In this document: piece by piece, positions 1,346 to 22,166 of the stretch
Numbering within the stretch: the first letter of the stretch is position 1
How the letters are laid out: every line of letters starts with the position of its first letter
From: a phage
Reading direction: 5' to 3' (one strand)
Length of the DNA stretch: 64,000 nucleotides
Sequence record: PZ386965.1
Program-made: the position numbers and the translations under genes
Notes under the pieces: generated by a model
What the model saw: only the letters and a program-made list of their open reading frames with translations
Databases searched by the model: none
Told to the model about the DNA's origin: nothing

Positions 1346-1391
1346 CTCGCGTTAATTGATGCGATGGTTTTTACAGGTCTTACTTAAATTA

Positions 1392-1778: not shown

Positions 1779-3463
1779 TAGATTCGTTCCCATTGATGAG
1801 TGATATCGCCACCGATTGGACGATAGGAAACACCAGTTTCTTTATCAGTTAGTACCCATTTACCAGGATTTTTTGTAATCAGAGTAGCCATTACAGGTTC
1901 TGCTACGTCATAACTAATAGAGCCATCTTGAAGTACACGACCCATGTTACGTAATTGCTTAGTCAGAAGTTCCATACCTTTATAATATGCGGCTACCGCT
2001 TTAAGTGGATTATTCTTGAAATAACCACCTAATGCAATCCAGATAATTGCTACTGCCAAATGATGATACTCGTTAAACGAACTCATCTTTCCATATTTGT
2101 AAACTAATGGATTGATGTTAATAGTCACATTACAAGTTGTTTCATCAATAGTAAACTGTCCCCAGGTCGGATTAGCATTGAATTCATCATAACCTGAAAC
2201 AGCATAAAGCACTTTAGCTTCATCGTACAATTTTGGCCCGTAAATCTTGGTTTCACCAAAATATCCACGAGGGTCGATAAACTTGACTTCGCCGTTATCA
2301 GTAATCATAGTATTACTGAAGTTCGGGTCACCATGAATAACAGAGTACTGTCCCTGAGAACGGTTATGATAACGAATAAGATGTTCTAAAGCTTGTTTCA
2401 ACATTGGCTTCAGACGTCCAATCTTAGTGTAGTTCACGTGTGTGATTTTACCAAATGAATCAATCAATGGCTGAATGCTTTCACAACGATCAATAACTTT
2501 CGTATAGAACTCTTTAGTGAAATCACGGCGAACAGTTTCAGGACTTACAAAATAAGTGTCCGTGCTGAATTTCAGTGCATCTAAAATTGCATCAACAATT
2601 TGTGGACGAGCAAGACTTGATTTGGATTTAATATATTCAAATGCCGGCTTACCTTTAATACGTTCCATTTCAAAATTATTTTCATTTACCGAAACTAACT
2701 GAGGAACTGAATCTGATTTCACTTTCAAGTACCATGAAATCTCATCTTTTTGAAGAGCTCGACCTTGTTCGGTTAACGCGAATTTAGTTACAGTTTCTTC
2801 GCCAATTTCAACTGCATTAAAACTACGATTAAGTTCACGAACTTCATGAGCTTTTTCAAGTTTAGGCATATCACCTAAATCAATTAGATTCATAAGCTCT
2901 GATTTATTGAATGCACTCCCGTAAAGGAATTCTACAAAATCACGTCCTTTGCAGTATTCGTGAATTTCCTCATCAGTAGAACCCATGTAGAATTCCCAGT
3001 CTTTGAACTGATAAATTCCTACAACATTACCGCCTGTTGAACCTACGTTAGTGATATTTTCACCATCGAAATTATATCGACATTCATCACCCTTAACATA
3101 GATTGCGTTAACATTCCAAGACCATGAACCAAAATCAGGAATAATATCACACCAGTTAACAATTACGTTATGTCCATCTAAATCTTTGTATAATTTAGCA
3201 AGAGCATAAGCAGAACCATACGCTTCATCAACTGTACGAATAGTCACATTGAACCCTTCTTGCTCACAATAAGCTCGAACAGTTTCAGCAAATTTTGAAT
3301 GAACTACTACAATAATTTCATCTGCGCCAAGGTCAGAATAAATTGTATACAAATTGCTCAGAATAGTGTCTTGTTTATAGTTAACAAGCACCTTAGGAAT
3401 ATGATGCGTTATTGGATACAAACGAGTTGCCAGTCCAGCACCAAGAATAACAGCTTTTTTCAT
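1778..3463 (-). CDS. bifunctional sugar-1-phosphate nucleotidyltransferase / sugar kinase (APH-like)
   Basis: N-terminal GxGTRLxPIT-type signature (ILGAGLATRLYPIT) of NDP-sugar pyrophosphorylases; C-terminal HGDxxxxN (HGDPNFSN) and IDPRG kinase motifs. Confidence 0.7.
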   Translation of the reverse strand: MKKAVILGAGLATRLYPITHHIPKVLVNYKQDTILSNLYTIYSDLGADEIIVVVHSKFAETVRAYCEQEGFNVTIRTVDEAYGSAYALAKLYKDLDGHNVIVNWCDIIPDFGSWSWNVNAIYVKGDECRYNFDGENITNVGSTGGNVVGIYQFKDWEFYMGSTDEEIHEYCKGRDFVEFLYGSAFNKSELMNLIDLGDMPKLEKAHEVRELNRSFNAVEIGEETVTKFALTEQGRALQKDEISWYLKVKSDSVPQLVSVNENNFEMERIKGKPAFEYIKSKSSLARPQIVDAILDALKFSTDTYFVSPETVRRDFTKEFYTKVIDRCESIQPLIDSFGKITHVNYTKIGRLKPMLKQALEHLIRYHNRSQGQYSVIHGDPNFSNTMITDNGEVKFIDPRGYFGETKIYGPKLYDEAKVLYAVSGYDEFNANPTWGQFTIDETTCNVTININPLVYKYGKMSSFNEYHHLAVAIIWIALGGYFKNNPLKAVAAYYKGMELLTKQLRNMGRVLQDGSISYDVAEPVMATLITKNPGKWVLTDKETGVSYRPIGGDITHQWERI

Positions 3464-3504
3464 GTTGTGGTCCTCATTGGTAAGTAGGTGTATTGTACAC
3501 TATT

Positions 3505-3615
3505 CTAGTTAAAGCATTCATACTTTGCTTGTAGTCCAATCATAATCCATCCGATTATAAGAGTCGGAATCATTACTGGAGCCGTTAAGCTCCAGTAGAT
3601 AGTCATGACAAGCAT
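3505..3615 (-). CDS. possible small hydrophobic protein (36 aa)
   Basis: Short ORF MLVMTIYWSLTAPVMIPTLIIGWIMIGLQAKYECFN in the intergenic gap; no motif support. Confidence 0.2.
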   Translation of the reverse strand: MLVMTIYWSLTAPVMIPTLIIGWIMIGLQAKYECFN

Positions 3616-3644
3616 CAATAGTAAAAGTCCTATTGTTATTGCTT

Positions 3645-4280
3645 TCATTGCTCGCCTCGTAACATGGCACCTAGTGCACCGCCTGGATGGAACTTAAGGA
3701 AGTCATTAGAGGTAAATCCACGTTCAGACGAAAGGTTGATAGCGAACGTATCGATAAGCGCTAACAACAATGTAGTGGACATTGTCGGAGCTAAAGAGTT
3801 CTCGTCAACTTCTACCGCGATACCGGTACAGAACGTATAATCAAAAAGAGCTTCGTATTCTTGCGGAATGTCCGGGTTACAATGCAACAGAATCTGTTTA
3901 ACCTGAGGACGAATCATACGAAGATGTTTAGCAACACCTATCATTTCTTCAGTTTTACCAGAACGACTAATATGAATCAACACGTCATTAGGCGCAATGA
4001 ATCCTGCATCACCGTGAGAATAATGCCCAGTGTTCAAGTACATACTTGGGATACCGAGTGAAGCAAATGTCTCGGAAGCTTTAGTTGCAATATTAGCATT
4101 CTTACCAACACCTGTAATAATTACTCGGCTTTCATAATTACTAAGACCAGGGCGTCGAAGAGTTTCTAGAATAGCATTATAACGAGCAGGGTTTTGACTA
4201 ATTACTTTAGCCATAGCGGCCAAAGAAGAAGCTTGTTTTATGATTGCGTCAATAGCGATATTAATAGGAGTAGTTTTCAT
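3645..4280 (-). CDS. SIS-domain sugar-phosphate isomerase (arabinose-5-P / heptose isomerase-like)
   Basis: SIS-like phosphosugar-binding region (ITGVGKNANIATKASETFASLGI), ~210 aa typical of single-domain SIS isomerases. Confidence 0.65.
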   Translation of the reverse strand: MKTTPINIAIDAIIKQASSLAAMAKVISQNPARYNAILETLRRPGLSNYESRVIITGVGKNANIATKASETFASLGIPSMYLNTGHYSHGDAGFIAPNDVLIHISRSGKTEEMIGVAKHLRMIRPQVKQILLHCNPDIPQEYEALFDYTFCTGIAVEVDENSLAPTMSTTLLLALIDTFAINLSSERGFTSNDFLKFHPGGALGAMLRGEQ

Positions 4281-4320
4281 ATTTCTCTCATTTAATTAGT
4301 TTACCGTCCATGGTATTATA

Positions 4321-7032
4321 TCAAAAATCGAACATATCGAACAGAGATGCTTTCTTCTCGTAATCGAGTTTCGCTGCTGATGTGAATCCTTCAAGTGGTT
4401 TAATAAATGTCTTCTCAAGGAGAACAGTGTAGTCCATCCAATGAAGTACGTCGTCTTTAATTAAATCTGTGATTTCAGTACCAGAAGGCCATGCGATACA
4501 TTTATCACCGAATGGGTTTCCTTCACGTAAAGGCAGAACATATACTTTTTCACCTTCTACAACTTGTGGAGCATCAATATTACCTTTGATAGCCCGGTTA
4601 TACGTCAGAATTCCACGAATATGGAACGGACATTTAGGGCCAGGGAATCCACCAACATCATATTTAGCAATGTTATTCGCAGAAGATACCGACGCGATGC
4701 TAATATAATTCAATTGACGGAATTCTTTTTCAAACTCTTTAAAATATTCTTGTAATGATTCTTCACCTTCTTGAAGCATACGACGAATACATTCCTTAAG
4801 AGCTTTCTGTACTGCTTTAGGAGTCGAAGATTTCTGAGTCTCGAGACCCATGATTTTGAGTTTAGGCTCAGCGTATCTGGTTCCTTCCATATCCCACACG
4901 TTTAATGCATAACGTTTCTTACCAGTCCAAAATCCGCCAATACCTTTAGAACCGAGCGGAGGGCCAGCAATAGCTTCTCGGTCCATGAACATTAAGTGTT
5001 GTTTATTGTTCATGTATTCACACATTTCACGGAAACCTCTATCAATAGCTGGTTCCATACGTTCACGTGCAAACTTATCTAAGAAGTCTACCCAATGGTT
5101 AGTATCACGGAATTTAGATTCACCAACCTTATCAATAATTTTATCTGCAGATACGTAAATAGAGTCTGTATCACCATAAAGAACGAAAGCTTCACCTTCT
5201 GTACCACAAACTTCATTCAGATATTCATTAACTTTACGTTCAATCCACTGTAAAGCCATTTGTCCGAATGTTGTGATTGCAGTAGCATTACGCAAATCAT
5301 AATAACGGAACCAGACGTTGCCAAGTGCACCATAAAGTGAGTTGATAAGCAATTTACGGTTAATTTGTGCAGTCATACCTGCAACTTCAGTACGTTGAGC
5401 TCTAAACAACATTTCATTAAGAGATTTAGCAGACAACTTTTTAATCTTTTCTTTAATCTCATCACTGAAGTCGAAACGATAATCAACATCTAATGGTTCG
5501 TCAACAGAAAGATTAGGATTATGCAATGCCTCTTTAATTATTTCACCGTTACGTTGAGCTGCAAGCATGTAACCTTTATGTTCTTTACGTTGATTAAAGA
5601 CCTTAGTGATTTCAGTTGGAACTACACCATCACGATCTTTATAATACATCATGCCGTTAGGAGAACAACTGTACACATCTGAAGGACGTTCAGCGATTGC
5701 GTTAATATAATCATGCAATGGAGCTACTTTAAACGTTCCTGCTATTGTTTCCGGGCTAATATTCACTTGGCGAATAATACTTGGATACAGAGATGTAAGG
5801 TCGAAACTCATTACATATTTGTATCGATTTGGAATAGGTTCCTTAACAAAAGCGCCAGGATAAGGTTGAACCGGGTGAGAACGACCTTGTGGAATCACCT
5901 TGTTCTGCTCTTTAAGGCTATTAAAAATAATAGCATCCCATGTTTTAATTGGGCTAAACACAGATTGAATCTGTATCTTAGCATAATAACCCATGTCCAA
6001 ACTCAAGTTGATGAACTGACGCTTAGCATCAATTTGCAATACACGATACACGTCGATAATGTTATAAGAAATATATCGTTGGTGATTGCTTTCACGAAGC
6101 TTAGAAATAGGGCCGTCATATTTCAGTTTACCAACGTTCAATTCAAATTCTGAAATGTAATCCAGAGAATACGACGGTTGATTGGTAAAAGAGAATTTTT
6201 TGTAAAGGTCGATATAATCAAGAACAGAGATACCGAACAATGTAATGATTTCACGAGAACCATACATGTTTTCGATAACTTTAACACGAGTTTTACGATG
6301 TGGTGATAAACGTTTCGCAGTAGATTCGCCAAAAATATTCTTGATTCTGTTATACACATATGGAATATCAAATGACTCAACGTTCCATCCAGTCAAAATG
6401 ACAGGAGTTTTCTGTTGCCAGAAGTTGAGATATTCCATCAACAATTCTTTTTCGTTATCGAACGGCATATAAATGATTTTATCGATAATTTCAGATGGAA
6501 CTTCATCACCACCTTGTTCTTGAAGCTTAGCCGCAATTTCGATAGACCATTCTTCTACATTACCATACGGAGAATTCAATAGATCAAATACGTAGAACCT
6601 GTCGTCAATTGAGTCATAATGGGTGATAGCATCAATCGGATGTTTTGCTTGTGACGGCTCAGGGAACCCATCCGGAGATGTTACTTCGATGTCGAAGTTA
6701 GCCACACGAATTTTTGTATGGTCGTATTTGATTTCATAGTTATAAGTGTCAGACAAATACGCCAATTTGAAATCGTCCATGCCAAGTGCTTCAAGTCCGA
6801 TATCTTCCATGCGTTTAATCCATTGGGAGGCATCACGCATATTAGCGAACAACTTACGAGTACACGGCTTACCGTAGATATCGAAATATTTCGTAGCCTG
6901 ACTTTCTGGACAATGAGCAAACAGTGATGGTTTATATTCTACTTCACGAGTACGTTCACGGCCATTAGAATCGATGTAACGTTCAAAAATTGAATCACCA
7001 ATCTGTTCAACCGTTAAGTAAAATTCTTTCAT
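4321..7032 (-). CDS. 43: DNA polymerase (family B, T4 gp43 type)
   Basis: 903 aa; exonuclease FDIEVTS and polymerase YGDTDS motifs; N-terminus MKEFYLTVEQIGDSIFERYID matches RB69/T4 gp43 as I recall it. Confidence 0.97.
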   Translation of the reverse strand: MKEFYLTVEQIGDSIFERYIDSNGRERTREVEYKPSLFAHCPESQATKYFDIYGKPCTRKLFANMRDASQWIKRMEDIGLEALGMDDFKLAYLSDTYNYEIKYDHTKIRVANFDIEVTSPDGFPEPSQAKHPIDAITHYDSIDDRFYVFDLLNSPYGNVEEWSIEIAAKLQEQGGDEVPSEIIDKIIYMPFDNEKELLMEYLNFWQQKTPVILTGWNVESFDIPYVYNRIKNIFGESTAKRLSPHRKTRVKVIENMYGSREIITLFGISVLDYIDLYKKFSFTNQPSYSLDYISEFELNVGKLKYDGPISKLRESNHQRYISYNIIDVYRVLQIDAKRQFINLSLDMGYYAKIQIQSVFSPIKTWDAIIFNSLKEQNKVIPQGRSHPVQPYPGAFVKEPIPNRYKYVMSFDLTSLYPSIIRQVNISPETIAGTFKVAPLHDYINAIAERPSDVYSCSPNGMMYYKDRDGVVPTEITKVFNQRKEHKGYMLAAQRNGEIIKEALHNPNLSVDEPLDVDYRFDFSDEIKEKIKKLSAKSLNEMLFRAQRTEVAGMTAQINRKLLINSLYGALGNVWFRYYDLRNATAITTFGQMALQWIERKVNEYLNEVCGTEGEAFVLYGDTDSIYVSADKIIDKVGESKFRDTNHWVDFLDKFARERMEPAIDRGFREMCEYMNNKQHLMFMDREAIAGPPLGSKGIGGFWTGKKRYALNVWDMEGTRYAEPKLKIMGLETQKSSTPKAVQKALKECIRRMLQEGEESLQEYFKEFEKEFRQLNYISIASVSSANNIAKYDVGGFPGPKCPFHIRGILTYNRAIKGNIDAPQVVEGEKVYVLPLREGNPFGDKCIAWPSGTEITDLIKDDVLHWMDYTVLLEKTFIKPLEGFTSAAKLDYEKKASLFDMFDF

Positions 7033-7090
7033 TTAATTTCCTTTAGACGAGTTATTGTCTTTTGTTTGTTGATGAACTTATTATACTCCA

Positions 7091-7111
7091 AATGGGACCG
7101 AAGTCCCATTG
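7091..7111 (-). terminator. stem-loop with UUCG tetraloop between regA and gene 43
   Basis: GGGAC-TTCG-GTCCC hairpin on transcribed strand. Confidence 0.4.
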
Positions 7112-7113
7112 CT

Positions 7114-7482
7114 TTAATTACCAATTGTATATTTTGCTTTCAAAGTCCAGTCATCTTTCTGTTTAAAAGAGATAACACGGAAGTTATTAGTCAGGCCAAA
7201 CAGATCTTCACGAGCAGAGTCTTCAATAACAATTAATCCCCAGTCTTCAAGCAACTGAGCAATCGAATCACGTCGCTGATAGTCTTCACCATCAATATCA
7301 ACCTGACGTCCATCCATACGCAACATTTCTTTAAAGTGGACGATATAATACTTACCTTGCTTTTGGAGGATATGACAAGACTGGTAAAGGACTTTATCCT
7401 TGTTATTAGCGATGCCCATACGAGTCAAAGTCTCTTTGACTTTCAGAAAATCTTCAGGGTTCTTCAATTTAATTTCAATCAT
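7114..7482 (-). CDS. regA: translational repressor RegA
   Basis: 122 aa from MIEIKLKNPEDFLKVKETLTRMGIANNKDKVLYQSCHILQK, collinear with T4 RegA; start overlaps gene 62 stop. Confidence 0.9.
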   Translation of the reverse strand: MIEIKLKNPEDFLKVKETLTRMGIANNKDKVLYQSCHILQKQGKYYIVHFKEMLRMDGRQVDIDGEDYQRRDSIAQLLEDWGLIVIEDSAREDLFGLTNNFRVISFKQKDDWTLKAKYTIGN

Positions 7483-7484
7483 TT

Positions 7485-8048
7485 TTACCATTCCAATGCT
7501 ATTTTTTTAAATTGTTTTTGTTCTTTCACATTTTTTGTAACTTCTTTGAGAAACTCATCAGTGACCATGGCCTTCAGTTCTTTAAGGACTATTGGCAGCT
7601 TGTTATTTTTTTCAAGGAGCCGCTTATACTCGGTAGCATCATTCATGTTGATTGTGTAACGTTTCATCAACAGTTTGATAACTAGTAACTCTGAAGTGTC
7701 TTCGACTAGTTTAGCCCATTTAGAGAATCGACGACCATGCGGAATTGCCACCATCATATAGTTGAAGTGCGCTTCATCACTTAATTCAGAACCGACTAAG
7801 TTCATCATGTAAACAGCTGGCATACATTCCGGGAACTGTGATAATGAGTTCTCAACCATAAATTTTGAGTAGTCGACCTGAGCAATTGACATAGATTTCT
7901 TTTCATTAATAGCATTAATGATTTTAAAGAATTCATTCTCAGGTTTTTCTTTAAACATATCAGCACATTTTTGAATCGCATCAGCGTCATTAGACTTCCA
8001 TGCAATTTGGTGCTCGTTAAGTTGGACGTCATCATCAAATAAGTTCAT
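7485..8048 (-). CDS. 62: clamp loader small subunit gp62
   Basis: 187 aa, position between 44 and regA as in T4. Confidence 0.85.
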
Positions 8049-8049
8049 A

Positions 8050-9012
8050 TTATTTCCAAGTCAGTTCGCAGGTCAGTTGAAGAAGCATATACATAACATG
8101 TAATTCAATATTACTTGCTAATCCATGAAACTTATTATTTTCGCCTGCAATTTCATAAAGCGAAATAATACTTTTACCAGGTGCAACTTGGTCATAACAT
8201 TCTGAAACTAATTTATCGATGAACCATGAATAATCTGCAGCATATTTTGGAGCTAATGCACGAAGTTGTTTGATATCTTTGTTCTTCATTGCTTCGATAA
8301 CATCAGAGACTGTGCCACGGTCATTAGTTACGATAGACAAAATACCTGCATCAAGAACACCTTTAGACGAGTACTGGTCTAATTGACCAATTGTACGACG
8401 AAAGTCCGGGAAGTTCTTTTTAACCAGAGCTGCAACAACTTTCATATCAGCGATTTCGATATTTTCATTCTTACAGATTTCAACCATACGATGAATCATT
8501 TTCTTCATCATCGAGATTTTATCTTCTTCGGTTGGACGTCCGAATTCGATAACTCGACAACGACTACGTAATGGTTCAATAATTCCATCGATGTTGTTAG
8601 CAGTAATAACAATAGAGCAGTTACTAGAGAATTCTTCCATAAACGTACGAAGGTGACGTTGTGATTCGGCGAGGCCACTACGGTCAAATTCATCAATAAC
8701 AATAACTTTAGGCTTGCCTTCCATTGAGACTGAACGAGCGAATGCAGTTAACGGACCACGCACAAAATCAATCTTACAATCAGAACCGTTGACGAACATC
8801 ATTTCGGCATTGATATCATTACATAATGCTTTTGCTACGGTTGTTTTACCTGTACCAGGAGAAGGAGAGTGCAAAATAATATGAGGAAGTTTTCCTTTAG
8901 ATACTAAAGACTTGAATGTTTCATGGTCATACGCAGGCAGAATACATTCGTCAATGGAAGAAGGACGATATTTCTGTTCTAGAATGTGTTCTTTAGAATT
9001 GATAGTAATCAT
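8050..9012 (-). CDS. 44: clamp loader ATPase gp44
   Basis: Walker [11 protein letters not shown], Walker B VIVIDEFD; [19 protein letters not shown]-terminus as in T4 gp44. Confidence 0.95.
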
Positions 9013-9087
9013 GTAATTTTCCTCATTATCATTAAACTGGAGGATTTCTCCTCCATAATCGTATCACAATAAACGTAAAGCTTTGAC

Positions 9088-9774
9088 TTAGAAGTCGTGA
9101 GTAGAATCGGCTTCCATCGCAATAACATAACTTACTTGAGAGCTTTCAAACTTAGCTGCAACTTTATCACCAGCTCCCCACAACATTACTTTATAGTTAC
9201 CTGGCTGGATTTTCATATTAGCCATATTGATTACGAAGTTAAAGTTGTTAGAACCATCATAATCAGTAAGAGTCAAAGAATACTTAGGACGAGTTAGACC
9301 AGAATCTTCAACTTTATTATAACCATTGATAACAATTTTACCATCTTTATTTGTAATAGCAATTGTATCAATCTGAAGACCACGTGAAACTCGAAGCAAT
9401 TGTTGAAGGTCTTCAGCTTTAATTTCAGTAATCACAGAAGCCACTGGGAATTGAATTGGCTTATTAGGAAAAACAATGGTGCTCTTGTCAGCGGCAGGCC
9501 AATAAACCGTGGAACGTGTATCTGCAATTTTAATATTGCCATCGGTGTGCATTGAAATTTCGGCATCATCAGACACTAGACTCAAAATGCTTAAGAAGCT
9601 ATTCAAATCATAAAGTGCTACGTCAAAATCAATTTCATCAGAGATATTTGCTTCCGCATAAGTGGTGCCATTAACTGCACGAGTCATAATAAATTTACCT
9701 TGACTCAGCAGAATGCCGGAGTTAATAGAGGCAAAGTTTTTCAGAATAGCGATAGTATCTTTAGACAGTTTCAT
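9088..9774 (-). CDS. 45: sliding clamp gp45
   Basis: 228 aa from MKLSKDTIAILKNF; collinear with T4 gp45. Confidence 0.93.
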   Translation of the reverse strand: MKLSKDTIAILKNFASINSGILLSQGKFIMTRAVNGTTYAEANISDEIDFDVALYDLNSFLSILSLVSDDAEISMHTDGNIKIADTRSTVYWPAADKSTIVFPNKPIQFPVASVITEIKAEDLQQLLRVSRGLQIDTIAITNKDGKIVINGYNKVEDSGLTRPKYSLTLTDYDGSNNFNFVINMANMKIQPGNYKVMLWGAGDKVAAKFESSQVSYVIAMEADSTHDF

Positions 9775-9816
9775 TTTATTTCCTTTCAAGACAATTCAAA
9801 GTTTATAACAAATTTA

Positions 9817-10233
9817 TTATGCAGCAACCATTTGCTTTTTGATAGCTTCAGGCAGTGATTCAATATATTCTGGAATTTTAGAAGCAACAATTTCGCCAGC
9901 TGCAATTAGTTGTTCGTCGGCATCAACACAATAGAAATCTTCCAGACGCTCAGAACCATCTTTATCAAGAACGATTTTTCCACCTGCTTCAATAGAATCT
10001 TTATAGTGCTTACGCATCAGATGAATCCACATATCAGATACATCGTTATCAATAAAACCATAAATCATAAAACGAGTTTCTTGTGGCAAAGATTGAAGCT
10101 TTTTAGCACTTGCGTCATCACAATGCAGGACCCATGCTTTACGAACACGATTATGGTTATGCGGGTTAGCGTCAGTACGGATAGAAGTAACTTTCAGATC
10201 AGCAGCGGTAAAACCTTTAGCAGTAGTAAACAT
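9817..10233 (-). CDS. rpbA: RNA polymerase binding protein RpbA
   Basis: Position between 45 and 45.2; size similar to T4 RpbA. Confidence 0.7.
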   Translation of the reverse strand: MFTTAKGFTAADLKVTSIRTDANPHNHNRVRKAWVLHCDDASAKKLQSLPQETRFMIYGFIDNDVSDMWIHLMRKHYKDSIEAGGKIVLDKDGSERLEDFYCVDADEQLIAAGEIVASKIPEYIESLPEAIKKQMVAA

Positions 10234-10245
10234 ATTATTTCTCTC

Positions 10246-10437
10246 TTATTCGTAGAAGTCAGTAACTGTCCATGCGGAATTGCGATTAGACATTATTTTA
10301 TTATACTCATCTTTAAAAGCAGATTTGAGCATTTGTTCAGTAACAATATGTTCTTCACCTGAAAACGTATTGGTCAAAACATATTTTTTAATTTCAGGGA
10401 CAACGAGAAGATGTTGTCCGGTTGAATACTCCGCCAT
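10246..10437 (-). CDS. gp45.2-like small protein
   Basis: 63-aa ORF in T4 45.2 position. Confidence 0.6.
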   Translation of the reverse strand: MAEYSTGQHLLVVPEIKKYVLTNTFSGEEHIVTEQMLKSAFKDEYNKIMSNRNSAWTVTDFYE

Positions 10438-10461
10438 TATAAATCTCCGTGTTTAAAGCAA

Positions 10462-10469
10462 TATAAATA
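10462..10469 (+). promoter_or_regulatory. late promoter TATAAATA upstream of HNH endonuclease gene
   Basis: Exact TATAAATA about 45 nt upstream of ATG at 10515. Confidence 0.5.
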
Positions 10470-10514
10470 GGTTTATCAATTTATCTGTTGCTGTATCAAA
10501 TAAGGATTTAGTAA

Positions 10515-11231
10515 ATGAATTATAACTCAATATACGAAAAGCTTATTACCAATGCTAAATCAAGAAGTTTAGATGGTTATACAGAACGTCATCACATTAT
10601 ACCACAATGTTTAGGTGGAAGTGATGATGCTTCAAACTTAGTAGACTTAACACCAGAAGAACATTATTTGGCACATCAACTGTTGGTAAAAATCTATCCA
10701 GATAATGCCTCTTTAATATACGCTGCTCGTATGATGACCATATCATCTCCTAAAGCAGATAGAAGCAAAAACAAATTATTTGGATGGCTTCGTCGTAAGA
10801 ATCAAGAAGTTCAAAAGAACAAAGAATTCACGGCTGAAACCCGTAAGAAAATGTCCGAGTCTGCAAAAAATAAACCAAAGATTACCTGTCCACATTGTGG
10901 TTTAACTGGAACTGAAGGAAACATGCGTCGTTGGCATTTTGATAATTGTAAACAAGGTCCAACGCCTAAAATAGTAAAATTATCTGATGATGAAAAACAG
11001 AGGATAAGTTCTAAACTTAAAACAATAGAGTGGAAACTCCACACATGTGTACACTGTGGTCTAGAAGGAAAAGCTTGCAATATAGTTCCTCATGAGAAAA
11101 ACTGCAAACTTAATCCTAATAGAATAAAACCTAATGTAACAATAGTGGAATGTCCATACTGCTCTAAAAGTGGTTCTATATCAAATATGAAAAGATGGCA
11201 TTTCGATAATTGTAAATATAAGCCTCATTAA
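10515..11231 (+). CDS. free-standing HNH homing endonuclease with three Cys-rich repeats
   Basis: HNH core HHIIPQCLGGSDDASNLVDLTPEEHYLAH; three repeats of CxxCG...RRWHFDNCK; only plus-strand gene inside a minus-strand block. Confidence 0.85.
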   Translation: MNYNSIYEKLITNAKSRSLDGYTERHHIIPQCLGGSDDASNLVDLTPEEHYLAHQLLVKIYPDNASLIYAARMMTISSPKADRSKNKLFGWLRRKNQEVQKNKEFTAETRKKMSESAKNKPKITCPHCGLTGTEGNMRRWHFDNCKQGPTPKIVKLSDDEKQRISSKLKTIEWKLHTCVHCGLEGKACNIVPHEKNCKLNPNRIKPNVTIVECPYCSKSGSISNMKRWHFDNCKYKPH

Positions 11232-12916
11232 GAGGCTTTCATCACAGTAAATCGTCCAACTTTGCTCATTTGAAGATGTTGTCCATAAGCTTGTGGGTCA
11301 TGGTCTCTGTGACTAATTATAAACACGTTTGCATCGGTTAGAGAGTTAAGAATTGTTGAAATAGCTTTAATACCTTCAGAATCAGTCGCGGAATCCATGA
11401 CTTCGTCCATAATTAATGTATTGATTCTAACACCAGAGACCTTTTCAGCAATATCTCGCCATGTAAACAACAATGCGATATCGATACGTGCCTTTTCACC
11501 TTGACTAAATGAAGCATAACTGAACTCTTCACGGCCACGTGATTTTATAGATTCATTGAATTCTTCATCAATAGAAAACACGTAATCAGCTTCCATGATT
11601 TTAAGGTAATGGTTAATCTGCTTGTTGAACAGAGGCACATATTTTTTAATGATAGCACCTTTAATACCAGAATCTTTTAACATATCTGTGATAATACCAC
11701 GATGGTATTTTTCAAGAACGATATCTGATTTTGTTTTAATGATTTTATCAAGTTCTTTTTGAAGCAAAGCTATCTCATCGGCATGGTCGATAAATTCCGC
11801 CGAGGCTTGTTCTATTGCAGCTTTAACTTTCTTAGCTTTATCAATAGTGGCAATCATTGCTTGTTTCTTGGTACGAATATCAGATGCAAGGTCCTGTTTA
11901 GTCTTAACATTAGCTCTATATTCGTCCACTAGGACACTCAGATTATCTCTGTGACATGTAAGTTGCTCGAATGAGTGATTACATTCATGAAGCTTATCGG
12001 TAATCTTAGAGACAATAGGATCACCCTGGTGCAACTGTGATGCACAAGTAGGACATGTACCGCCATCATGATACATCTTAATAACTTTGTTATATGAGTC
12101 AATTTTAGATTTAATCAAGAATGCTTCTTGTCCGATCTTGTTGAATGCCTCAGTAGGGTCTTCGTCAAGAACGATATTAAGTAGACGCTCATTAGCTTCT
12201 TCGATTTCTGCTTTTAATGAACGAGCTTCTTTGGCTAGGTCGTCATACATATTCTGTAGACGCGCTACATTATCACCAGATAATTTCTTTTGACGTTCGA
12301 TATTCTCGTTATAAATCTTAATTTGTTGGATAACACCATCTTTCTTGGCATCGAGAACTTGTCCCTGGGAATTAAGTTCTCGAACTTGAGACTTATTGAT
12401 TTTATCCATTTCAGCAAGTGTGCCGACTTCTAAAAGGTCTTCGACAAGTTTTCTACGAGCAGGGGTGCTAAGAGCCATGAAAGGGGTATACCCTGCCGTC
12501 CCAAGCACAACGATCTGTTTAAAAGACGCGTATGACATTCCGATGCTACGTTCAAATTCTTCTTGGAAGTCACGACTGCTGGCAGATTCATCGAGACGAA
12601 CACCGTCAACGGAGATTTCGAAAATATTGGGCTTTTGGCCACGTTTAATGAAGTATTTTTTATCATCGAATTCCATCCAAAGCTCAACTAAGAGCTCTTT
12701 CTTGTTCGTGCTATTAATGATTTGTCCTTTCTTAACATCACGAAATGGTTTACCGAAAAGTCCGAAAGTAATGGCTTCTAACATCGTAGATTTACCACCG
12801 CCATTTTTACCAGTGATTAATGTTTTTTGGACTTTATCTAATTGGATATCAATAGGATTCCCACCTACCGACATGATGTTTTGATAACGAACACGATTTA
12901 ATTTAAATGATTTCAT
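11228..12916 (-). CDS. 46: recombination endonuclease subunit gp46 (Rad50/SbcC-like)
   Basis: 562 aa; Walker A GKNGGGKST; coiled-coil middle; T4 order. Confidence 0.93.
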   Translation of the reverse strand: MKSFKLNRVRYQNIMSVGGNPIDIQLDKVQKTLITGKNGGGKSTMLEAITFGLFGKPFRDVKKGQIINSTNKKELLVELWMEFDDKKYFIKRGQKPNIFEISVDGVRLDESASSRDFQEEFERSIGMSYASFKQIVVLGTAGYTPFMALSTPARRKLVEDLLEVGTLAEMDKINKSQVRELNSQGQVLDAKKDGVIQQIKIYNENIERQKKLSGDNVARLQNMYDDLAKEARSLKAEIEEANERLLNIVLDEDPTEAFNKIGQEAFLIKSKIDSYNKVIKMYHDGGTCPTCASQLHQGDPIVSKITDKLHECNHSFEQLTCHRDNLSVLVDEYRANVKTKQDLASDIRTKKQAMIATIDKAKKVKAAIEQASAEFIDHADEIALLQKELDKIIKTKSDIVLEKYHRGIITDMLKDSGIKGAIIKKYVPLFNKQINHYLKIMEADYVFSIDEEFNESIKSRGREEFSYASFSQGEKARIDIALLFTWRDIAEKVSGVRINTLIMDEVMDSATDSEGIKAISTILNSLTDANVFIISHRDHDPQAYGQHLQMSKVGRFTVMKAS

Positions 12917-13152
12917 ATGTATTCTCTTCGAATGAAGTCCTCTACATATTTTAACATGTCATCTCTATCAGCAAAATACTCATCTAGTTCTGCATACATA
13001 ACAACACCTGGTGCGTACTCACAGGTAACATACATTGTTCCAAAGAAACGAGGAGTTGTCTCCTCGTAATTCTCAGTCCATTCAACGATACCAATATAAC
13101 CGTCACCAATACTAAATTCGTGACGATGGATTTCATAGTCAGTCTTCGTCAT
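12913..13152 (-). CDS. gp46.1-like protein
   Basis: ORF trimmed to ATG overlapping upstream stop. Confidence 0.55.
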   Translation of the reverse strand: MTKTDYEIHRHEFSIGDGYIGIVEWTENYEETTPRFFGTMYVTCEYAPGVVMYAELDEYFADRDDMLKYVEDFIRREYI

Positions 13153-13396
13153 TATACGCATCCTCGATACACGCTTCAGCCATTTTAAGAATAGAGCCAG
13201 GAGTATCATTGTCCATTATATTAAAGCTAAATTCAATAGCCCAGTCGGTACAGACATGAACGGCTTTAACTTCATTGCCTTCAACGCGTAATGGCTCAAT
13301 CCAATACTTGATAGTGTTCTCGAATCCATCATCATCTTTAACGTCTATTTCAACTTCAAGCCCGAGCCCAGCATTATTAAATTCATCTAAAGTCAT
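13139..13396 (-). CDS. gp46.2-like protein
   Basis: 85-aa ORF, overlaps gene 47 stop. Confidence 0.55.
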   Translation of the reverse strand: MTLDEFNNAGLGLEVEIDVKDDDGFENTIKYWIEPLRVEGNEVKAVHVCTDWAIEFSFNIMDNDTPGSILKMAEACIEDAYNDED

Positions 13397-14412
13397 TGTG
13401 TTGCCTCAATATAAAGTTCGTTGGAATATTTGACCAGCGCTTCTCTGTCTTCGTCTGAGATATCTGGAATAGCGTCAATATATTCTTTAATGATATCTTG
13501 AAGTGATTTAATCTCGATTTCCTGGTCATCATCAGATTCAACACTGTTATCAACTTTAGAAACCATACGAAGAGAGTGAACTACTTTTTCAAGTTCAGAT
13601 TCAAACTTAGTCAACTCTGAATCAATTTCTGATACTATAACACGTACGGCTAGATTAGTATAATCAGAATAATTGATTTTGCCTTTAAATGGATAAGTGA
13701 TTCGTCGATGCCATGTTGTTTCATTAGGAATAAATTCCATACGTTCAACATCAGTGTCAAATACCCAGAATCCACGTGGGTCGTTCTCGTCACCTGCAGT
13801 AAGGGTCCATGGTGTCCCAATATATTTGACGTTAGCAGCTTCAGAGATTGTGTGGAAGTGGCCGGACCAGACTTGTTTATAGGTCTTTAAGAAATCAGGT
13901 TCAAGCCCATGGGACTTCATTCCTTTATAGAAATAAAAGCCGTTCAGTTCCCAGTGACCAACACAATACGCAGCAGAAGAAGTCTTGATGTGCTCTAAGA
14001 TTTCACCTGTATTTTCTTCACACATCCATGGAACGATATCAATCAGACATCCGTCAAAATCTACAGTAGTTGGATGCTCGTAAATAGTAAAGTTTTCAAA
14101 TTGAGTTAACAATTCAGAAACAGTGTTAGGTGTTATTGTATTCTTAAACGCCATGTCATGGTTTCCTATCGTGACATGAACGTGAATGCCTGCTTTAGAA
14201 ATCATATCAACGATTTCACGATTGAATTCCATTGTACGATGTGTTATTGCTTTACGGACGTCAAACCAATCACCGTACTGAATCCAAGTTTTAATCCCGT
14301 GTTTCTTAGAGTATTCAATTGCTTGTCGAATACCATCACGTTGAATATCTTGAACCCATGGGTCGTCTTGTTTGACTCCGATATGGAAGTCGCCTAAGTG
14401 CAAAATTTTCAT
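13393..14412 (-). CDS. 47: recombination endonuclease subunit gp47 (Mre11/SbcD-like)
   Basis: Phosphoesterase motifs LHLGDFH and GNHD; 339 aa. Confidence 0.93.
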   Translation of the reverse strand: MKILHLGDFHIGVKQDDPWVQDIQRDGIRQAIEYSKKHGIKTWIQYGDWFDVRKAITHRTMEFNREIVDMISKAGIHVHVTIGNHDMAFKNTITPNTVSELLTQFENFTIYEHPTTVDFDGCLIDIVPWMCEENTGEILEHIKTSSAAYCVGHWELNGFYFYKGMKSHGLEPDFLKTYKQVWSGHFHTISEAANVKYIGTPWTLTAGDENDPRGFWVFDTDVERMEFIPNETTWHRRITYPFKGKINYSDYTNLAVRVIVSEIDSELTKFESELEKVVHSLRMVSKVDNSVESDDDQEIEIKSLQDIIKEYIDAIPDISDEDREALVKYSNELYIEATQ

Positions 14413-14460
14413 ATTATTTCCTCATTAGTTAATTCATTCTATCATCCGTTTATAAAGCAA

Positions 14461-14490
14461 AAAAGGAACTCCGAAGAGTTCCTATCCACA
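14461..14490 (-). terminator. rho-independent terminator
   Basis: GGAACTC-TTCG-GAGTTCC hairpin followed by TTTTTTG on minus strand. Confidence 0.75.
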
Positions 14491-14655
14491 TAGTACACCA
14501 TACAGAGGCTCATTTGAACTTTTAAATCGAATTGGCTTGTATGTAATAGTTCCTTCGGCTTTAGCTTTATCATAAGACTCTTTAAAACGTCTCATTCTTT
14601 CTGCTTTGCCTTTACGGATTTTATCAAAATTTTCAGAAGTCGGGATGTTCGTCAT
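14482..14655 (-). CDS. small basic protein (57 aa)
   Basis: ORF MTNIPTSENFDKIRKGKAERMRRFKESYDKAKAEG... ending at terminator hairpin; below track length cutoff. Confidence 0.4.
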   Translation of the reverse strand: MTNIPTSENFDKIRKGKAERMRRFKESYDKAKAEGTITYKPIRFKSSNEPLYGVLCG

Positions 14656-14694
14656 GCATAAGCACCTCTCAGAAAATGCCTAAATCGATTTCTC

Positions 14695-14901
14695 TCATCG
14701 TTTCCACCATTTCTTAACTTGAAATGAATCAACCCACACGAGTTGTTTTGGGTCTGCCTTTACAATAGGCGGACAAATTTCTGTAATAGAACCGTCGTGA
14801 TATTCCTTTTCGGAAATTTTAACACAAAGAGGACCACCCAATTTAATGGTGAACCCTGCGTTCAGCTTCAGACGTTTAAACTTTGTTTGAACTAGCGCCA
14901 T
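14695..14901 (-). CDS. hypothetical protein
   Basis: Track ORF, trimmed start. Confidence 0.45.
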   Translation of the reverse strand: MALVQTKFKRLKLNAGFTIKLGGPLCVKISEKEYHDGSITEICPPIVKADPKQLVWVDSFQVKKWWKR

Positions 14902-15199
14902 TAATGATGTCCTCAATAGCTTGACGAGTAGTAACCCACTGGATTTTAATTAACTTGTCATTATATGGTTGTCGTAGAATATCCCGAGATTTCTTAATAG
15001 CATATTCGTAAGCTTCGAAGTTGTTTTGAATTGCTGCTTCTTGAGCATGAGCATAAAGACGGTTTAGTTCAAAACGGTTCTTTTTAAGAATCTTTTCGGA
15101 TTTTTTACGTGCTTCAGCTTCATTTTTCTTTTGGATTTCTTGTAGCATTTTAGCTACTGCATCTTCTGCTTCTTTATTTTCAATAATCTCGGTAGTCAT
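14876..15199 (-). CDS. hypothetical protein (55.x region)
   Basis: 107-aa ORF, lysine-rich. Confidence 0.5.
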   Translation of the reverse strand: MTTEIIENKEAEDAVAKMLQEIQKKNEAEARKKSEKILKKNRFELNRLYAHAQEAAIQNNFEAYEYAIKKSRDILRQPYNDKLIKIQWVTTRQAIEDIINGASSNKV

Positions 15200-15200
15200 A

Positions 15201-15416
15201 TTATCTCATTAAATTAAAATAAAAACGTCCGTCCTCTTCAATACAGAACTCGTACTCAACTGGAGTCCCATTTATCGAAAATGACACGTCATGCGGGTTC
15301 AAAGGGTCGATGTCAAAATTAATTTTAAATTCTCGACCCAACAGTTTTACCAAATAAGGGATTGCTTCGTCAAAAGGTTCTTCTAAGTAGTTAGAGATGT
15401 CAATTGTCATCCTCAT
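15201..15416 (-). CDS. hypothetical protein
   Basis: ATG overlapping gene 55 stop. Confidence 0.45.
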
Positions 15417-15975
15417 ATAAAAAATCCAAACTAGGCGAATCGCTAACAACTTCCTTCTTTTCAGCCCCAGGAGCTTTATAAGCGGATTCTTCATAATGCG
15501 TCATTTTATCGTAGATGTCTTGAATAAACGTTTCATCTACCAACGCTACCATATCATCGTCATGACTGTCGTAGACATTATGAACGAAGTAACTATATTT
15601 CTTTGCAACTTCCTTACGTTCTTTTTTGATACGTTGGACAAAAGCATTAAAACAAGCTCGAGTTATGTATGCATGTGGGTTATTGTACTTAGTTTCGTCG
15701 AAATTATGAAGTCCCTTAATAGAGGCTTCAATCCCATCTGCAATCATCTCCTGCTTCCAAGACTGGGTATATCCTGAAAAGTTGAAACGTTTGGACAGGC
15801 CTTCGGCGATAAGCATAATTGCTAAACCGATGGTATCATTCTGACGAATAATTTTGTTTGGGTCTTTATTATTTAAGAGCTCCTTTTTCCACTCGATTAT
15901 AGCGGCGAGAAGCTCTTTATTATTCACATAGTTATTTTTAGGTTTTTGTTCAGTCATAAGTACCTCTTGGCTCAA
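15400..15975 (-). CDS. 55: late transcription sigma factor gp55
   Basis: [21 protein letters not shown] region collinear with T4 gp55; ~190 aa. Confidence 0.9.
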
Positions 15976-16029
15976 TTCATAGGTCTATTATATCATAATA
16001 TTTAGAGGCCTATCTTAAAGCACGAGATA

Positions 16030-16299
16030 CTATCGGAGCAAACAATACGCCTGGAATACTTTTTCCATTAAACGTTTGAACTCATGTATATCAATATAAA
16101 GCTCGGTTAATCCAGCTCCATAAAGAAAATCTAAAAAGTTCTCATGTGTTTCGTTATAGTCGCCTTCGTTTAATTGAGATACATGAGTTTCCCAAAAACC
16201 GACACCTTTAACAAATGGAAAATACGTAACTTTCATAAAGTTGTCGACGTAAAATTCGCCCAGCTTTTCTTCAGTTATACTGATTCGAGTTAATTTCAT
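16030..16299 (-). CDS. hypothetical protein
   Basis: Track ORF. Confidence 0.5.
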   Translation of the reverse strand: MKLTRISITEEKLGEFYVDNFMKVTYFPFVKGVGFWETHVSQLNEGDYNETHENFLDFLYGAGLTELYIDIHEFKRLMEKVFQAYCLLR

Positions 16300-16523
16300 T
16301 CTAGTTCCTTTGCCGCTTCAAGAGCAGCATCCAATGAATCAAATTGGTCAACGAAATCAATATTCAACGCATCGTCAACCGTAGCATATAACCACCATTG
16401 TTTGAATTCGTATTCTAGAATAAATCCAAGCCCTTCAATCTGAGAAAGACCTAGACTATTTGTACCAACTTCGTAACCAGCTAGACGCAGGTCATTAATC
16501 AAAGCTTCTGTTAATACGCTCAT
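16296..16523 (-). CDS. hypothetical protein
   Basis: Track ORF, coupled stop/start. Confidence 0.5.
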   Translation of the reverse strand: MSVLTEALINDLRLAGYEVGTNSLGLSQIEGLGFILEYEFKQWWLYATVDDALNIDFVDQFDSLDAALEAAKELE

Positions 16524-16855
16524 TTTACCGCCTTAACAATTTTCAGGTCAACGAATTTTTTCTTACGTTGATTTTTCATACGACGGATAGTCTTTTCAGA
16601 GATTTCATGTTTCTGATAAGCTTTAGATTCAACACCAAATGCAGCAACGTCAAATTCAGAAAGAATATATTGTACTAGAATTTCACGAATAGAATTACGT
16701 CCAATTTTCTGGTCGTGTTTTTGCATGATTTCATAAAGACGGAATTCCCAGGCGTCAAGAACTTGAGGAGTAACAATATTGCCAGATTCCAGAAGAGCAA
16801 CAACTTTATCGAAAGCGAAAGAATTAACTACGTTTTTGATTTTAGTAGACATATT
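16520..16855 (-). CDS. hypothetical protein
   Basis: ATG with GAGGA RBS; downstream of promoter cassette. Confidence 0.5.
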   Translation of the reverse strand, partial: NMSTKIKNVVNSFAFDKVVALLESGNIVTPQVLDAWEFRLYEIMQKHDQKIGRNSIREILVQYILSEFDVAAFGVESKAYQKHEISEKTIRRMKNQRKKKFVDLKIVKAVK

Positions 16856-16880
16856 ATTTTCCTCGGTTATTTTATTATCC

Positions 16881-16922
16881 AACGAGAGAATTATACTCAT
16901 CTCTCAAGAGTTTGTATATTAT
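16881..16922 (-). promoter_or_regulatory. early promoter / stem-loop cassette
   Basis: TATAAT -10 on minus strand embedded in GAGAGA/TCTCTC inverted repeat. Confidence 0.5.
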
Positions 16923-17158
16923 TTTTTAAGCATGAAAAGTAAGTAATTTGTATCACGTGGAGTAATATCAACACCCATATCAAAGATGCCTTTATAGATT
17001 GGGTATTTGTTTTCGGTTGTATCGAAGCTGAAACTATTTCCATCACAACTAACAGTAATAGCATCTGTTAAAATGTCATACTCAATCCTAACAATTGAAT
17101 CCCCAATTTTAACGTCGAGGTGTTTTTTGAATTTGATAAAATCTAATTCTTGGGCCAT
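16919..17158 (-). CDS. hypothetical protein
   Basis: Track ORF. Confidence 0.5.
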   Translation of the reverse strand: MAQELDFIKFKKHLDVKIGDSIVRIEYDILTDAITVSCDGNSFSFDTTENKYPIYKGIFDMGVDITPRDTNYLLFMLKK

Positions 17159-17170
17159 GATATTTTCCTC

Positions 17171-17222
17171 ATTTTAAGACGATAGGAAGATAATAACATG
17201 TCTTCCTATCGTTGTACATTAT
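17171..17222 (-). promoter_or_regulatory. early promoter / stem-loop cassette
   Basis: GATAGGAAGA...TCTTCCTATC inverted repeat plus TGTACA -35-like. Confidence 0.45.
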
Positions 17223-17434
17223 TAACCGAACTTTTTAGCGCCTTTCCAGCCTTCGTACATAACTGCACAAGTCAATAGTACAGCATGTTGGCATTCTTTG
17301 TATTTGTAAATCCAGAACCAGCGTAAGAAGTCTTCATCCTCAACACCATTGAGTTTCATGTTGGCAAAGAATTCGGCACGTTCTTCACGAAGCTTTTGCG
17401 ATAACATAGATTCAGGATTCATTTTATATTCCAT
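17222..17434 (-). CDS. hypothetical protein
   Basis: Track ORF. Confidence 0.45.
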   Translation of the reverse strand: MEYKMNPESMLSQKLREERAEFFANMKLNGVEDEDFLRWFWIYKYKECQHAVLLTCAVMYEGWKGAKKFG

Positions 17435-17646
17435 GCCCCATTTTCATCGATGAACTTAATCCAGTCATTTACAGACCATTTAGTTGTATCACCCTTTGGA
17501 TTAACATTTAAAGTATATAATCCCTGCTTAAAAAGCATTCGTTTGATATTCATAATTTCCTCAACTGTAACGATAACATTCGTTAGCTTTACGTTTGGCT
17601 TCAGTATGAGAAGTATTATAATCATACTCTTCTTTACTGTAAACAT
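17419..17646 (-). CDS. hypothetical protein
   Basis: Track ORF. Confidence 0.4.
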   Translation of the reverse strand: MFTVKKSMIIILLILKPNVKLTNVIVTVEEIMNIKRMLFKQGLYTLNVNPKGDTTKWSVNDWIKFIDENGAWNIK

Positions 17647-17854
17647 CTTTTTTCAACTTACGAACTTCTTTGCGGAGTTGTCGATTCATTTCATTCTTGA
17701 CTTCAGAATCAACACCTTTCATACGTTTCCATTTATCTGAGCGGAAGATGTTTTCAACCATGTCTTTGTGGCTAACACCATCAGGAGCTTTACGCTTACC
17801 AAAATAGTCGTAATCGCGAACTTTCAAATCTTTACGACGATATGTTTTACCCAT
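17561..17854 (-). CDS. hypothetical basic protein
   Basis: Track ORF trimmed; overlaps neighbour in another frame so one of the pair may be spurious. Confidence 0.35.
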   Translation of the reverse strand: MGKTYRRKDLKVRDYDYFGKRKAPDGVSHKDMVENIFRSDKWKRMKGVDSEVKNEMNRQLRKEVRKLKKDVYSKEEYDYNTSHTEAKRKANECYRYS

Positions 17855-17861
17855 AAGTACC

Positions 17862-18110
17862 TCAGAGGTTGATTGATACAATGCGTTTGATAAAATTCAC
17901 TTCACTTACTGAAAGGTCTTTAAGACCGATTGATTCTAAACGCTGAGTAAGCGTCAACATCGGGATATAATCCCAATGAGTTTTATTTGCTTGATAAGTA
18001 CGAACGCCATTAGCAATTTCAACATGCAAATCTGAAATGGTAACGAATACCAGACGCTCATCATTAACTTTAAGGGTTAGAACAACTTTCTTTGAATCTA
18101 AACTAATCAT
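17862..18110 (-). CDS. hypothetical protein
   Basis: Track ORF. Confidence 0.45.
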   Translation of the reverse strand: MISLDSKKVVLTLKVNDERLVFVTISDLHVEIANGVRTYQANKTHWDYIPMLTLTQRLESIGLKDLSVSEVNFIKRIVSINL

Positions 18111-18289
18111 AGTTTAATTTCCTTCGCGATTGAACAGAAGATACCACGGTCACAAAGCAGTTCACCAATTTCTGGATATTTGATTGAACGGTACCAAACA
18201 TCCAGGCTTGAAATTCTGGTTATCTGTATTGCATTACCGTTGACAGAATAGTACTGGTCAACCTTAATTTCTTTATCTTCAATTGACAT
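18107..18289 (-). CDS. hypothetical protein
   Basis: ATG with AGGAAA RBS. Confidence 0.4.
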   Translation of the reverse strand: MSIEDKEIKVDQYYSVNGNAIQITRISSLDVWYRSIKYPEIGELLCDRGIFCSIAKEIKL

Positions 18290-18456
18290 TTTGTTTTCCT
18301 CTGTGGTAGATGATGCTAATCTTAACATATCTATCGAGGATGTAAACTGTTTTATGAAAATATTTTTGATTTGAGAGGGGCACAAGGAGATAGTGAAGTG
18401 AAGATTCTAATGGATTATATTAGAAATAAGGATAAAGAAGACCAGGCGGCACCTGG

Positions 18457-19063: not shown

Positions 19064-19065
19064 AA

Positions 19066-19281: not shown

Positions 19282-19392
19282 ATTTACCCTTAATTAATTA
19301 ACCAAGCGTTGATAAGCAAACAATATTGCGAATAAAATTCTGGACCAAAATGAAAAATCATATCATTTATAGTGTCCATAATGTAATTCAAT

Positions 19393-22147: not shown

Positions 22148-22166
22148 GATAAACCCTTACCTTAAA

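Follow-up and report, generated by a model that had tools for sequence, protein, structure and literature searches.

Why does one gene of a T-even phage run against its neighbours, and how did it come to lie between genes 45.2 and 46? The question is raised by a 64,000-nucleotide (nt) stretch of phage DNA (record PZ386965.1; hereafter the window), a genome segment of a Mosigvirus (RB69-like T-even phage) that between positions 9800 and 12000 is 98.8% identical to Mosigvirus mar005p1 (OZ035759.1) and 98.6% identical to RB69 (shared parts). Analysis of the locus indicates, with a probability that we put at roughly 85%, that the gene (plus strand, 10515..11231; 238 amino acids, ATG start) is a free-standing homing endonuclease cassette of the T-even 'Mob' HNH family, seated at the 46/45.2 junction. 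All of the Mob-type characters that can be assessed in silico are present: an HNH domain, a C-terminal modular region, an intergenic position, and patchy presence with precise junctions. Close relatives are already entered in GenBank as 'homing endonuclease' or 'Mob-like HNH homing endonuclease', and the gene is an uncharacterised, fairly ordinary new member of a known family with three modestly unusual traits: it is inverted with a putative late promoter of its own, it encodes three zinc fingers, and its finger module appears to be naturally swapped.

The minus-strand genes of the region are, from right to left, 47, 46.2, 46.1, 46 (11228..12916), 45.2 (10246..10437), rpbA, 45, 44 and 62. The endonuclease open reading frame (ORF) lies between 45.2 and 46, is convergent with gene 46 and points against both neighbours, each of which remains an intact ORF; a ribosome-binding site, AGGA (10503..10506, plus strand), stands 8 nt before its ATG. 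A first-pass annotation of this DNA had begun the gene at 10438, which is the first base past the start codon of 45.2 rather than the ORF start at 10515. The same annotation was right that the 3' end overlaps that of gene 46, the overlap being 4 nt (11228..11231, TTAA, containing both stop codons), and its description of the only plus-strand gene in a minus-strand block holds for ORFs of at least 90 amino acids in 176..55750, a limit that does not exclude smaller plus-strand genes. All other plus-strand ORFs above that limit in this interval are without a PHROG match and were rejected as genes; the minus-strand ORFs that overlap them were matched wherever scanned. The guanine-plus-cytosine content of the endonuclease gene is slightly low (33.9%, compared with 37.1 +/- 1.9%).

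Domain architecture and family

The endonuclease matches the PHROG 655 'homing endonuclease' profile with an E-value of 3e-66, and BLASTP aligns it over its full length with T4 MobE (34% identity, E 3e-35), the similarity being greatest over residues 1 to ~100 and in the final zinc finger. A database search returned 2909 homologs at E <= 1e-5, many of them with Pfam PF07460 (NUMOD3). Residues ~1-100 (10515..10814, plus strand) constitute an HNH (beta-beta-alpha-metal) nuclease domain with H26, H27, N41, H50 and H54 at its core, and the HNH core quoted in the first-pass annotation, ERHHIIPQCLGG followed by N41 and then by H50, is found in the ORF. In an alignment of 103 homologs, residues Y3, Y7, E24, H26, H27, P30, C32, G35, N41, H50 and H54 are invariant, as are the ligands of the third zinc finger (C213, C216, H229 and C233). 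A profile made from this alignment places residues 23-52 on the HNH motif of EcoKMcrA (6ghc, E 0.005); searched by sequence, the PDB gave no relative below E 0.001, the 30-residue HNH core alone aligning to McrA, and an NCBIfam scan gave nothing meaningful. An AlphaFold2 model (mean predicted local distance difference test score, pLDDT, 94.2; predicted template-modelling score, pTM, 0.60) consists of the HNH domain, a helical linker and three beta-beta-alpha fingers, and it matches predicted viral structures in BFVD, among them T4 MobB (6e-10), T4 MobC (4e-8), I-TevIII (3e-7) and MobE-like proteins, the best matches reaching E 4e-15. The identification as an HNH homing endonuclease is thus borne out by the PHROG 655, MobE and I-TevIII-finger alignments and by the fold matches.

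The region after the HNH domain is predicted to be a 'beads-on-a-string' DNA-binding module. It begins with a NUMOD3-like helix, FTAETRKKMSESAK (10827..10868, plus strand; residues 105-118), of which a motif search finds one copy, and continues with three zinc fingers on the plus strand: finger 1, CX2CX12HX3C (10887..10949; residues 125-145, ligands C125, C128, H141 and C145); finger 2, CX2CX11HX3C (11046..11105; residues 178-197, ligands C178, C181, H193 and C197), which is homologous to the first finger of I-TevIII; and finger 3, CX2CX12HX3C (11151..11213; residues 213-233), which aligns both with the single finger of T4 MobE and with the second finger of I-TevIII. These had been described as three tandem cysteine-rich repeats; all three are there, separated by linkers of ~32 and ~15 residues and hence not strictly tandem. 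Their ligands are invariant in an alignment of the 10 sequences of the clade, finger 1 of the model has beta-beta-alpha topology, and finger 3 is the sole finger kept across the whole Mob-like family (103 homologs). Fingers 2 and 3 with the CK.NPNRI linker are 44% identical to the I-TevIII C-terminus over 90 aligned columns (E 5e-15). The fingers of I-TevIII, CX2CX12-13HX3C, bind two zinc ions and are needed for substrate binding, and cleavage is carried out by a dimer (PMC1865063); the X11 spacer of finger 2 is one residue below that published range. Homologs of the window protein also carry NUMOD3 repeats, and the 120 best homologs have between 1 and 7 fingers, the three-finger plan being limited to the 26 closest.

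T4 MobE shares with the window protein the N-terminal MNY...HHIIP.C.GG...N...EH domain and the C-terminal CPHC...RWH.D.CK finger, and it too is free-standing between conserved genes and patchy in distribution. It differs in combining NUMOD3 repeats with a single finger, where the window protein has one NUMOD3-like helix and three fingers; in its insertion site, nrdA/nrdB rather than 45.2/46; and in its expression, the MobE gene being co-oriented with its neighbours, lacking a promoter of its own and limited by an internal terminator, whereas the window gene is inverted behind a conserved candidate late promoter. T4 MobB, T4 MobC and other 'Mob-like' phage HNH proteins likewise join an HNH domain to a variable DNA-binding tail, but have other C-terminal modules and other insertion sites. 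I-TevIII (phage RB3/U5), a protein of 269 amino acids, resembles the window protein in its N-terminal HNH domain, its homologous fingers and its own middle or late promoter, but has two fingers and lies in the nrdB group I intron, whereas the window gene is free-standing with three; because it is not intron-encoded, the window gene shares the I-TevIII finger domain without being an I-TevIII ortholog. In the phage U5 nrdB intron record (960..1767), the I-TevIII frame is split into overlapping ORFs (960..1157 and 1105..1767), which suggests that U5 has a frameshifted copy.

The inverted orientation has a parallel in T4 segD, a GIY-YIG gene between 23 and 24 that is oriented against its neighbours but belongs to another nuclease family and for which a specific promoter was not found, in contrast to the conserved TATAAATA upstream of the window gene. 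Apart from segD, which is without an identifiable promoter, every endonuclease gene of T4 runs in the same direction as its neighbours, and the endonuclease-specific promoters of T4 are middle or late, never early (PMC2988022). Since segD alone is inverted, and lacks a promoter, an inverted gene with its own late promoter is unrepresented among the fifteen endonuclease genes of T4; nor is 45.2/46 among the 15 T4 endonuclease sites (Table 1, PMC2988022). The window gene would accordingly add to the T-even catalogue an uncharacterised homing site, where gene 46 ends and 45.2 begins.

Occupied and empty forms of the 45.2/46 site

The gene is carried by 14 of the 263 phage records that match its flanks; among the matches listed, those without it have a query cover of 63% and span 1462 nt, as opposed to 2201 nt. 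RB69 and ~90% of Mosigvirus records lack it, so that the comparison with relatives free of the insertion, which the first-pass annotation had named as a check, finds most Mosigvirus genomes empty at the site, with exact junctions. Three-finger orthologs (45-81% identity) occupy the same position, convergent with gene 46, in 10 of 10 loci examined, which represent at least five genera: Mosigvirus a20, Dhakavirus IME281, Tequatrovirus fFiEco06, Klebsiella phage RCIP0009, Cronobacter phage leB (Pseudotevenvirus), Yersinia phage MHG19 and four metagenomic contigs. Among T4-like loci in IMG/VR with adjacent 46 and 45.2, 1 of ~41 is occupied. Presence and absence with exact junctions, together with recurrence at one site in at least five genera, support the view that the cassette is mobile.

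The junctions were located in an alignment of eight loci with the cassette (HE+, window included) and four without it (HE-), all from Mosigvirus, and were set relative to RB69 by direct inspection, MAFFT having misplaced the gap. The cassette-specific segment (10432..11239, plus strand) is found in HE+ Mosigvirus and absent from RB69-type genomes, and amounts to ~808 nt in place of ~67 nt, which include the 54-nt spacer between 46 and 45.2 of RB69. At the left junction, GAATACTCC runs into GCCATTATAAATC in HE+ loci and into ATGTTGTTCTCC in HE- loci; at the right junction, homology picks up again at (T)CAT(C/T)ACAGTAAATCG. These junctions are identical in 8/8 HE+ Mosigvirus loci, and the net difference of 739 nt agrees with the BLAST spans. 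The gene had been described as inserted between 45.2 and 46; the position is right, but the event is a replacement that takes the ends of both neighbours with it, rather than a clean insertion.

On the minus strand, the start of 45.2 is rewritten (10432..10437) to an ATG with an extra alanine codon, giving MAEY... in place of MEY..., and a ribosome-binding site for 45.2, GGAG, stands at 10445..10448. The extra alanine also follows the 45.2 start in HE+ Tequatrovirus (GTG GCA GAA) and HE+ Dhakavirus (ATG GCT). Likewise, the last three codons and the stop codon of gene 46 (11228..11239, minus strand) come from the cassette, so that gp46 ends in ...VMKAS instead of the ...VMTVS of RB69; its C-terminus is also changed in HE+ Tequatrovirus, Klebsiella-phage and Cronobacter-phage loci. 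This foreign flank, with its extra 45.2 alanine and altered gp46 tail, thus recurs in HE+ genomes of three genera, and two HE- genomes (L019 and L021) natively read TAA followed directly by TGCTTTAAAC...TATAAT...ATGGCT, closely like the left flank in the window. The pattern suggests that the cassette brings with it a short piece of sequence from a former host, in which case the minimal inserted unit would be ~10461..11227, beginning one base ahead of the late promoter and ending immediately before the gene 46 stop codon. For annotation, the cassette explains why the C-terminus of gp46 and the N-terminus of the 45.2 product differ between close phages.

In Escherichia phage ESCO47, a divergent block comprising genes 45, rpbA and 45.2 (76-93% identity) stops exactly at the left edge of the cassette, beyond which identity is 97-100%. 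A conserved ...AAAGTTGGNCGATTTAC... just inside gene 46 is kept in HE+ and HE- forms alike. The 54-nt spacer of RB69 (2136..2189 of the RB69 locus) can form a stable hairpin, GATGTGGT...ACCACATC (z -3.75), around a TATAAT box; the cassette removes this hairpin.

Two other endonuclease positions lie close by in Mosigvirus. The FL31 locus has an extra 296-amino-acid ORF between 45 and rpbA (608..1498, minus strand) that matches PHROG 7504 'homing endonuclease' (E 3e-16). In the F2 locus, a gene annotated as 'MobD-like homing endonuclease' (4604..5201, minus strand) lies directly upstream of 46, where the window and RB69 have 46.1/46.2, and G2469 has a coding sequence at the same coordinates and strand annotated as 'hypothetical protein'. 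A further endonuclease site would thereby lie no more than 2 kb from 45.2/46. With three insertion sites within ~4 kb, namely 45/rpbA (FL31), 45.2/46 (window) and upstream of 46 (F2, G2469), the 45-47 region is a hot spot for such genes.

Expression signals and proposed homing

An exact match to the T4-type late promoter consensus, TATAAATA, lies at 10462..10469 (plus strand), 46 nt before the ATG, where the first-pass annotation had placed it. Of the 10 aligned loci (window included, several genera), 7 have an exact copy 27-53 nt ahead of the ATG, and the remaining three have one-mismatch versions (CATAAATA, CTTAAATA and CCTAAATA); judged by the frequency of the motif in the window, an 80-nt stretch would contain an exact copy by chance with a probability of ~0.005. 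The alignment thus points to a late promoter conserved across genera. Downstream, the 5' untranslated region (10470..10514, plus strand) contains TTTATC at 10472..10477 and 10480..10485 and GTATCAAA at 10493..10500. In the 10-locus upstream alignment, these TTTATC...GTATCAAA elements are common to the cassettes of several genera though synonymous sites are saturated, and it may be speculated that they act as an operator or a translational control element; the predicted RNA folding of the region is unremarkable (z -1.5). An I-TevI-style operator, sought as similarity between the 5' untranslated region and the empty site, was rejected, the short matches found (GTTTAT..AA and GTGTT(T)AAAGC) being too weak.

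At the other end, a palindromic hairpin on both strands (AAGCCTC-ATTAA-GAGGCTT, 11220..11238) contains the stop codons of both convergent genes. Its predicted free energies are -13.8 kcal/mol on the plus strand and -14.2 kcal/mol on the minus strand (z -5.4 and -5.5, respectively), and Dhakavirus IME281 has the same stem. A scan for consensus terminators did not call it, because it lacks a clean T-run.

Facing the other way, a motif resembling a MotA box with a -10 box, TGCTTTAAACACGGAGATTTATAAT (10436..10460, minus strand), is directed towards 45.2, rpbA and 45, and may function as a middle promoter. In the window, TGCTTNA-N11-13-TANNNT is found 13 times (3.4 expected), chiefly on the minus strand, and HE- genomes have an equivalent MotA-like motif in the 46/45.2 spacer. 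As the -10 box overlaps the ATG of 45.2, transcripts from TGCTTTAAACACGGAGATTTATAAT would miss full-length 45.2 and could serve rpbA and 45.

We propose that RNA polymerase directed by gp55 would transcribe the endonuclease from TATAAATA late in infection; that, when a cassette-free genome co-infects, the enzyme would bind that genome at the 46/45.2 junction, with the fingers serving as the DNA-binding module as they do in I-TevIII; that it would then either nick the DNA, as MobE does, or cut both strands as a dimer, as I-TevIII does; and that phage recombination repair, copying the cassette-bearing genome, would install the cassette together with a few flanking bases, among them the altered final codons of gene 46 and start of 45.2. 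Replacement of the ~67 nt around the junction would make the carrier genome immune. Within Mosigvirus, the fixed differences between HE+ and HE- loci are confined to these ~67 nt, which bracket the target, and the final few gene 46 codons of HE+ genomes are unlike those of their HE- relatives in three genera. MobE nicks nrdB of phage T2 and is inherited at high frequency, and a bipartite site has been proposed for it, in which the enzyme binds a conserved block of coding sequence and cuts in a polymorphic stretch (PMC2790892). A site of the same type is plausible here. Nuclease activity, the position of cleavage and super-Mendelian inheritance of the cassette are what we infer from such analogies.

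Selection, alleles and alternative explanations

The gene evolves under purifying selection: the N-terminal parts of the a20 and FL31 copies differ by 20 synonymous and 0 nonsynonymous substitutions, and omega is ~0.17-0.20 in comparison with Dhakavirus IME281. Two alleles are present in Mosigvirus. They are ~98% identical over nt 1-465 of the ORF, which encode the HNH domain, the NUMOD3-like helix and finger 1, and identical in the last 36 nt, whereas an allele-specific block between these parts (10980..11195, plus strand; ORF nt 466-681), encoding a linker, finger 2 and finger 3, has ~40-60% nucleotide identity to the common Mosigvirus allele and 39% identity at the protein level. The number of synonymous substitutions per site (dS) is ~2.1 in this block and 0.09 in the N-terminal part, which argues for an old, diverged module acquired by recombination rather than for rapid local evolution. 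Among 50,697 phage records, the allele of the window is found in one (OZ035759.1) and the other allele in 13. The closest match to the finger 2-3 module of the window comes from a metagenomic ortholog (P0003) at the same site, and since even this match has 69% amino-acid identity, no recent donor of the module is in the databases.

It is conceivable, although we would attach little confidence to it, that the CCHC fingers of the three-finger clade are exchangeable recognition modules and that the swap of fingers 2 and 3 is a natural change of target specificity. If so, a swap could let one allele follow variants of the target site, or attack and replace a rival allele, and the relatives with 1-7 fingers would be a natural toolkit of HNH nickases with zinc fingers. 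The near-identical natural pairs with and without the cassette (a20 or mar005p1-type compared with RB69), together with the two alleles that differ only in the finger 2-3 module, constitute an experimental system, and such pairs could address how Mob enzymes choose their targets and whether they nick or cut.

Several results count against a homing endonuclease at this site. The Pfam HNH and HNH_5 matches of the protein fall below the cut-offs, as do its zinc-ribbon matches; a close solved structure was not found, comparison of the elongated model with the PDB giving weak matches; and the copy in ESCO47 (2215..2931 of its locus) has an H27Y substitution in the catalytic HH pair, so that it may be inactive. 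In the window as a whole, TATAAATA occurs at chance frequency (8 observed, 8.3 expected), and because this count is what chance would give, the meaning of the promoter rests on its conservation across genera. Outside the replaced segment there are no fixed single-nucleotide polymorphisms in the flanks that separate HE+ from HE- loci within Mosigvirus, for which reason no co-conversion tract is visible and the target is bracketed rather than pinpointed; nor, when co-conversion tracts and protective polymorphisms were looked for, did flank identity within Mosigvirus track the presence of the cassette. In the searched literature we found neither activity data for this endonuclease or any ortholog nor a paper that describes or tests the 45.2/46 locus, and MobE itself could not be shown to be active in vitro (PMC2790892).

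Among the alternatives, the one that survives best, though we consider it improbable, is that a former homing endonuclease has become immobile or domesticated, being kept for the gene ends, the 45.2 ribosome-binding site or the promoter motif that it supplies, or having acquired a role in regulation or DNA metabolism. The cassette does rewrite the ends of both neighbours and holds the MotA-box/-10 motif facing 45.2, and purifying selection would also fit a benefit to the host; in T4, host promoters embedded in endonuclease genes favour retention of those genes, and I-TevI also acts as an autorepressor (PMC2988022). Against this stand the invariant HNH catalytic residues in 103 homologs and the patchy occurrence of the same gene at the same site in several genera, which is the signature of ongoing horizontal spread; moreover, ~90% of Mosigvirus records manage without the gene, which is therefore not needed.

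Very much in doubt is a further possibility, that the gene is mainly a weapon between phages, cutting the 46/45 region of a co-infecting relative for marker exclusion or replacing the rival allele. Consistent with it, copies of the gene at a single site within one phage population are 98% identical apart from their finger 2-3 modules, of which there are two, deeply diverged; the boundaries of recombination blocks coincide with the cassette; and Mosigvirus has three endonuclease insertion sites within ~4 kb. Marker exclusion, however, is a known by-product of ordinary homing and hence not truly a mechanism of its own, nothing indicates that one allele cuts the other, and ordinary recombination between diverged alleles explains the module swap equally well. 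That the ORF is a chance reading frame or an annotation artefact on the non-coding strand, as its orientation opposite to all neighbours might suggest, is refuted by the 2909 homologs, the strong PHROG match, a ratio of nonsynonymous to synonymous substitution rates (dN/dS) far below 1, the high-confidence fold (pLDDT 94) and the lack of any competing minus-strand gene to fill 10438..11227. A free-standing homing endonuclease cassette is the reading that we retain.

Two observations concern the annotation of neighbouring genes. The 46.1 ORF of the window (12913..13209, minus strand; 98 amino acids) matches its PHROG profile only from residue 27 onwards, and 46.1 probably starts at a codon beyond the first ATG; in RB69 its coding sequence is 240 nt long. 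In the G2469 locus, the annotation gives the sliding-clamp gene, 45, as a pair of overlapping coding sequences (734..1270 and 1254..1475), a split that may reflect a frameshift or a sequencing error.

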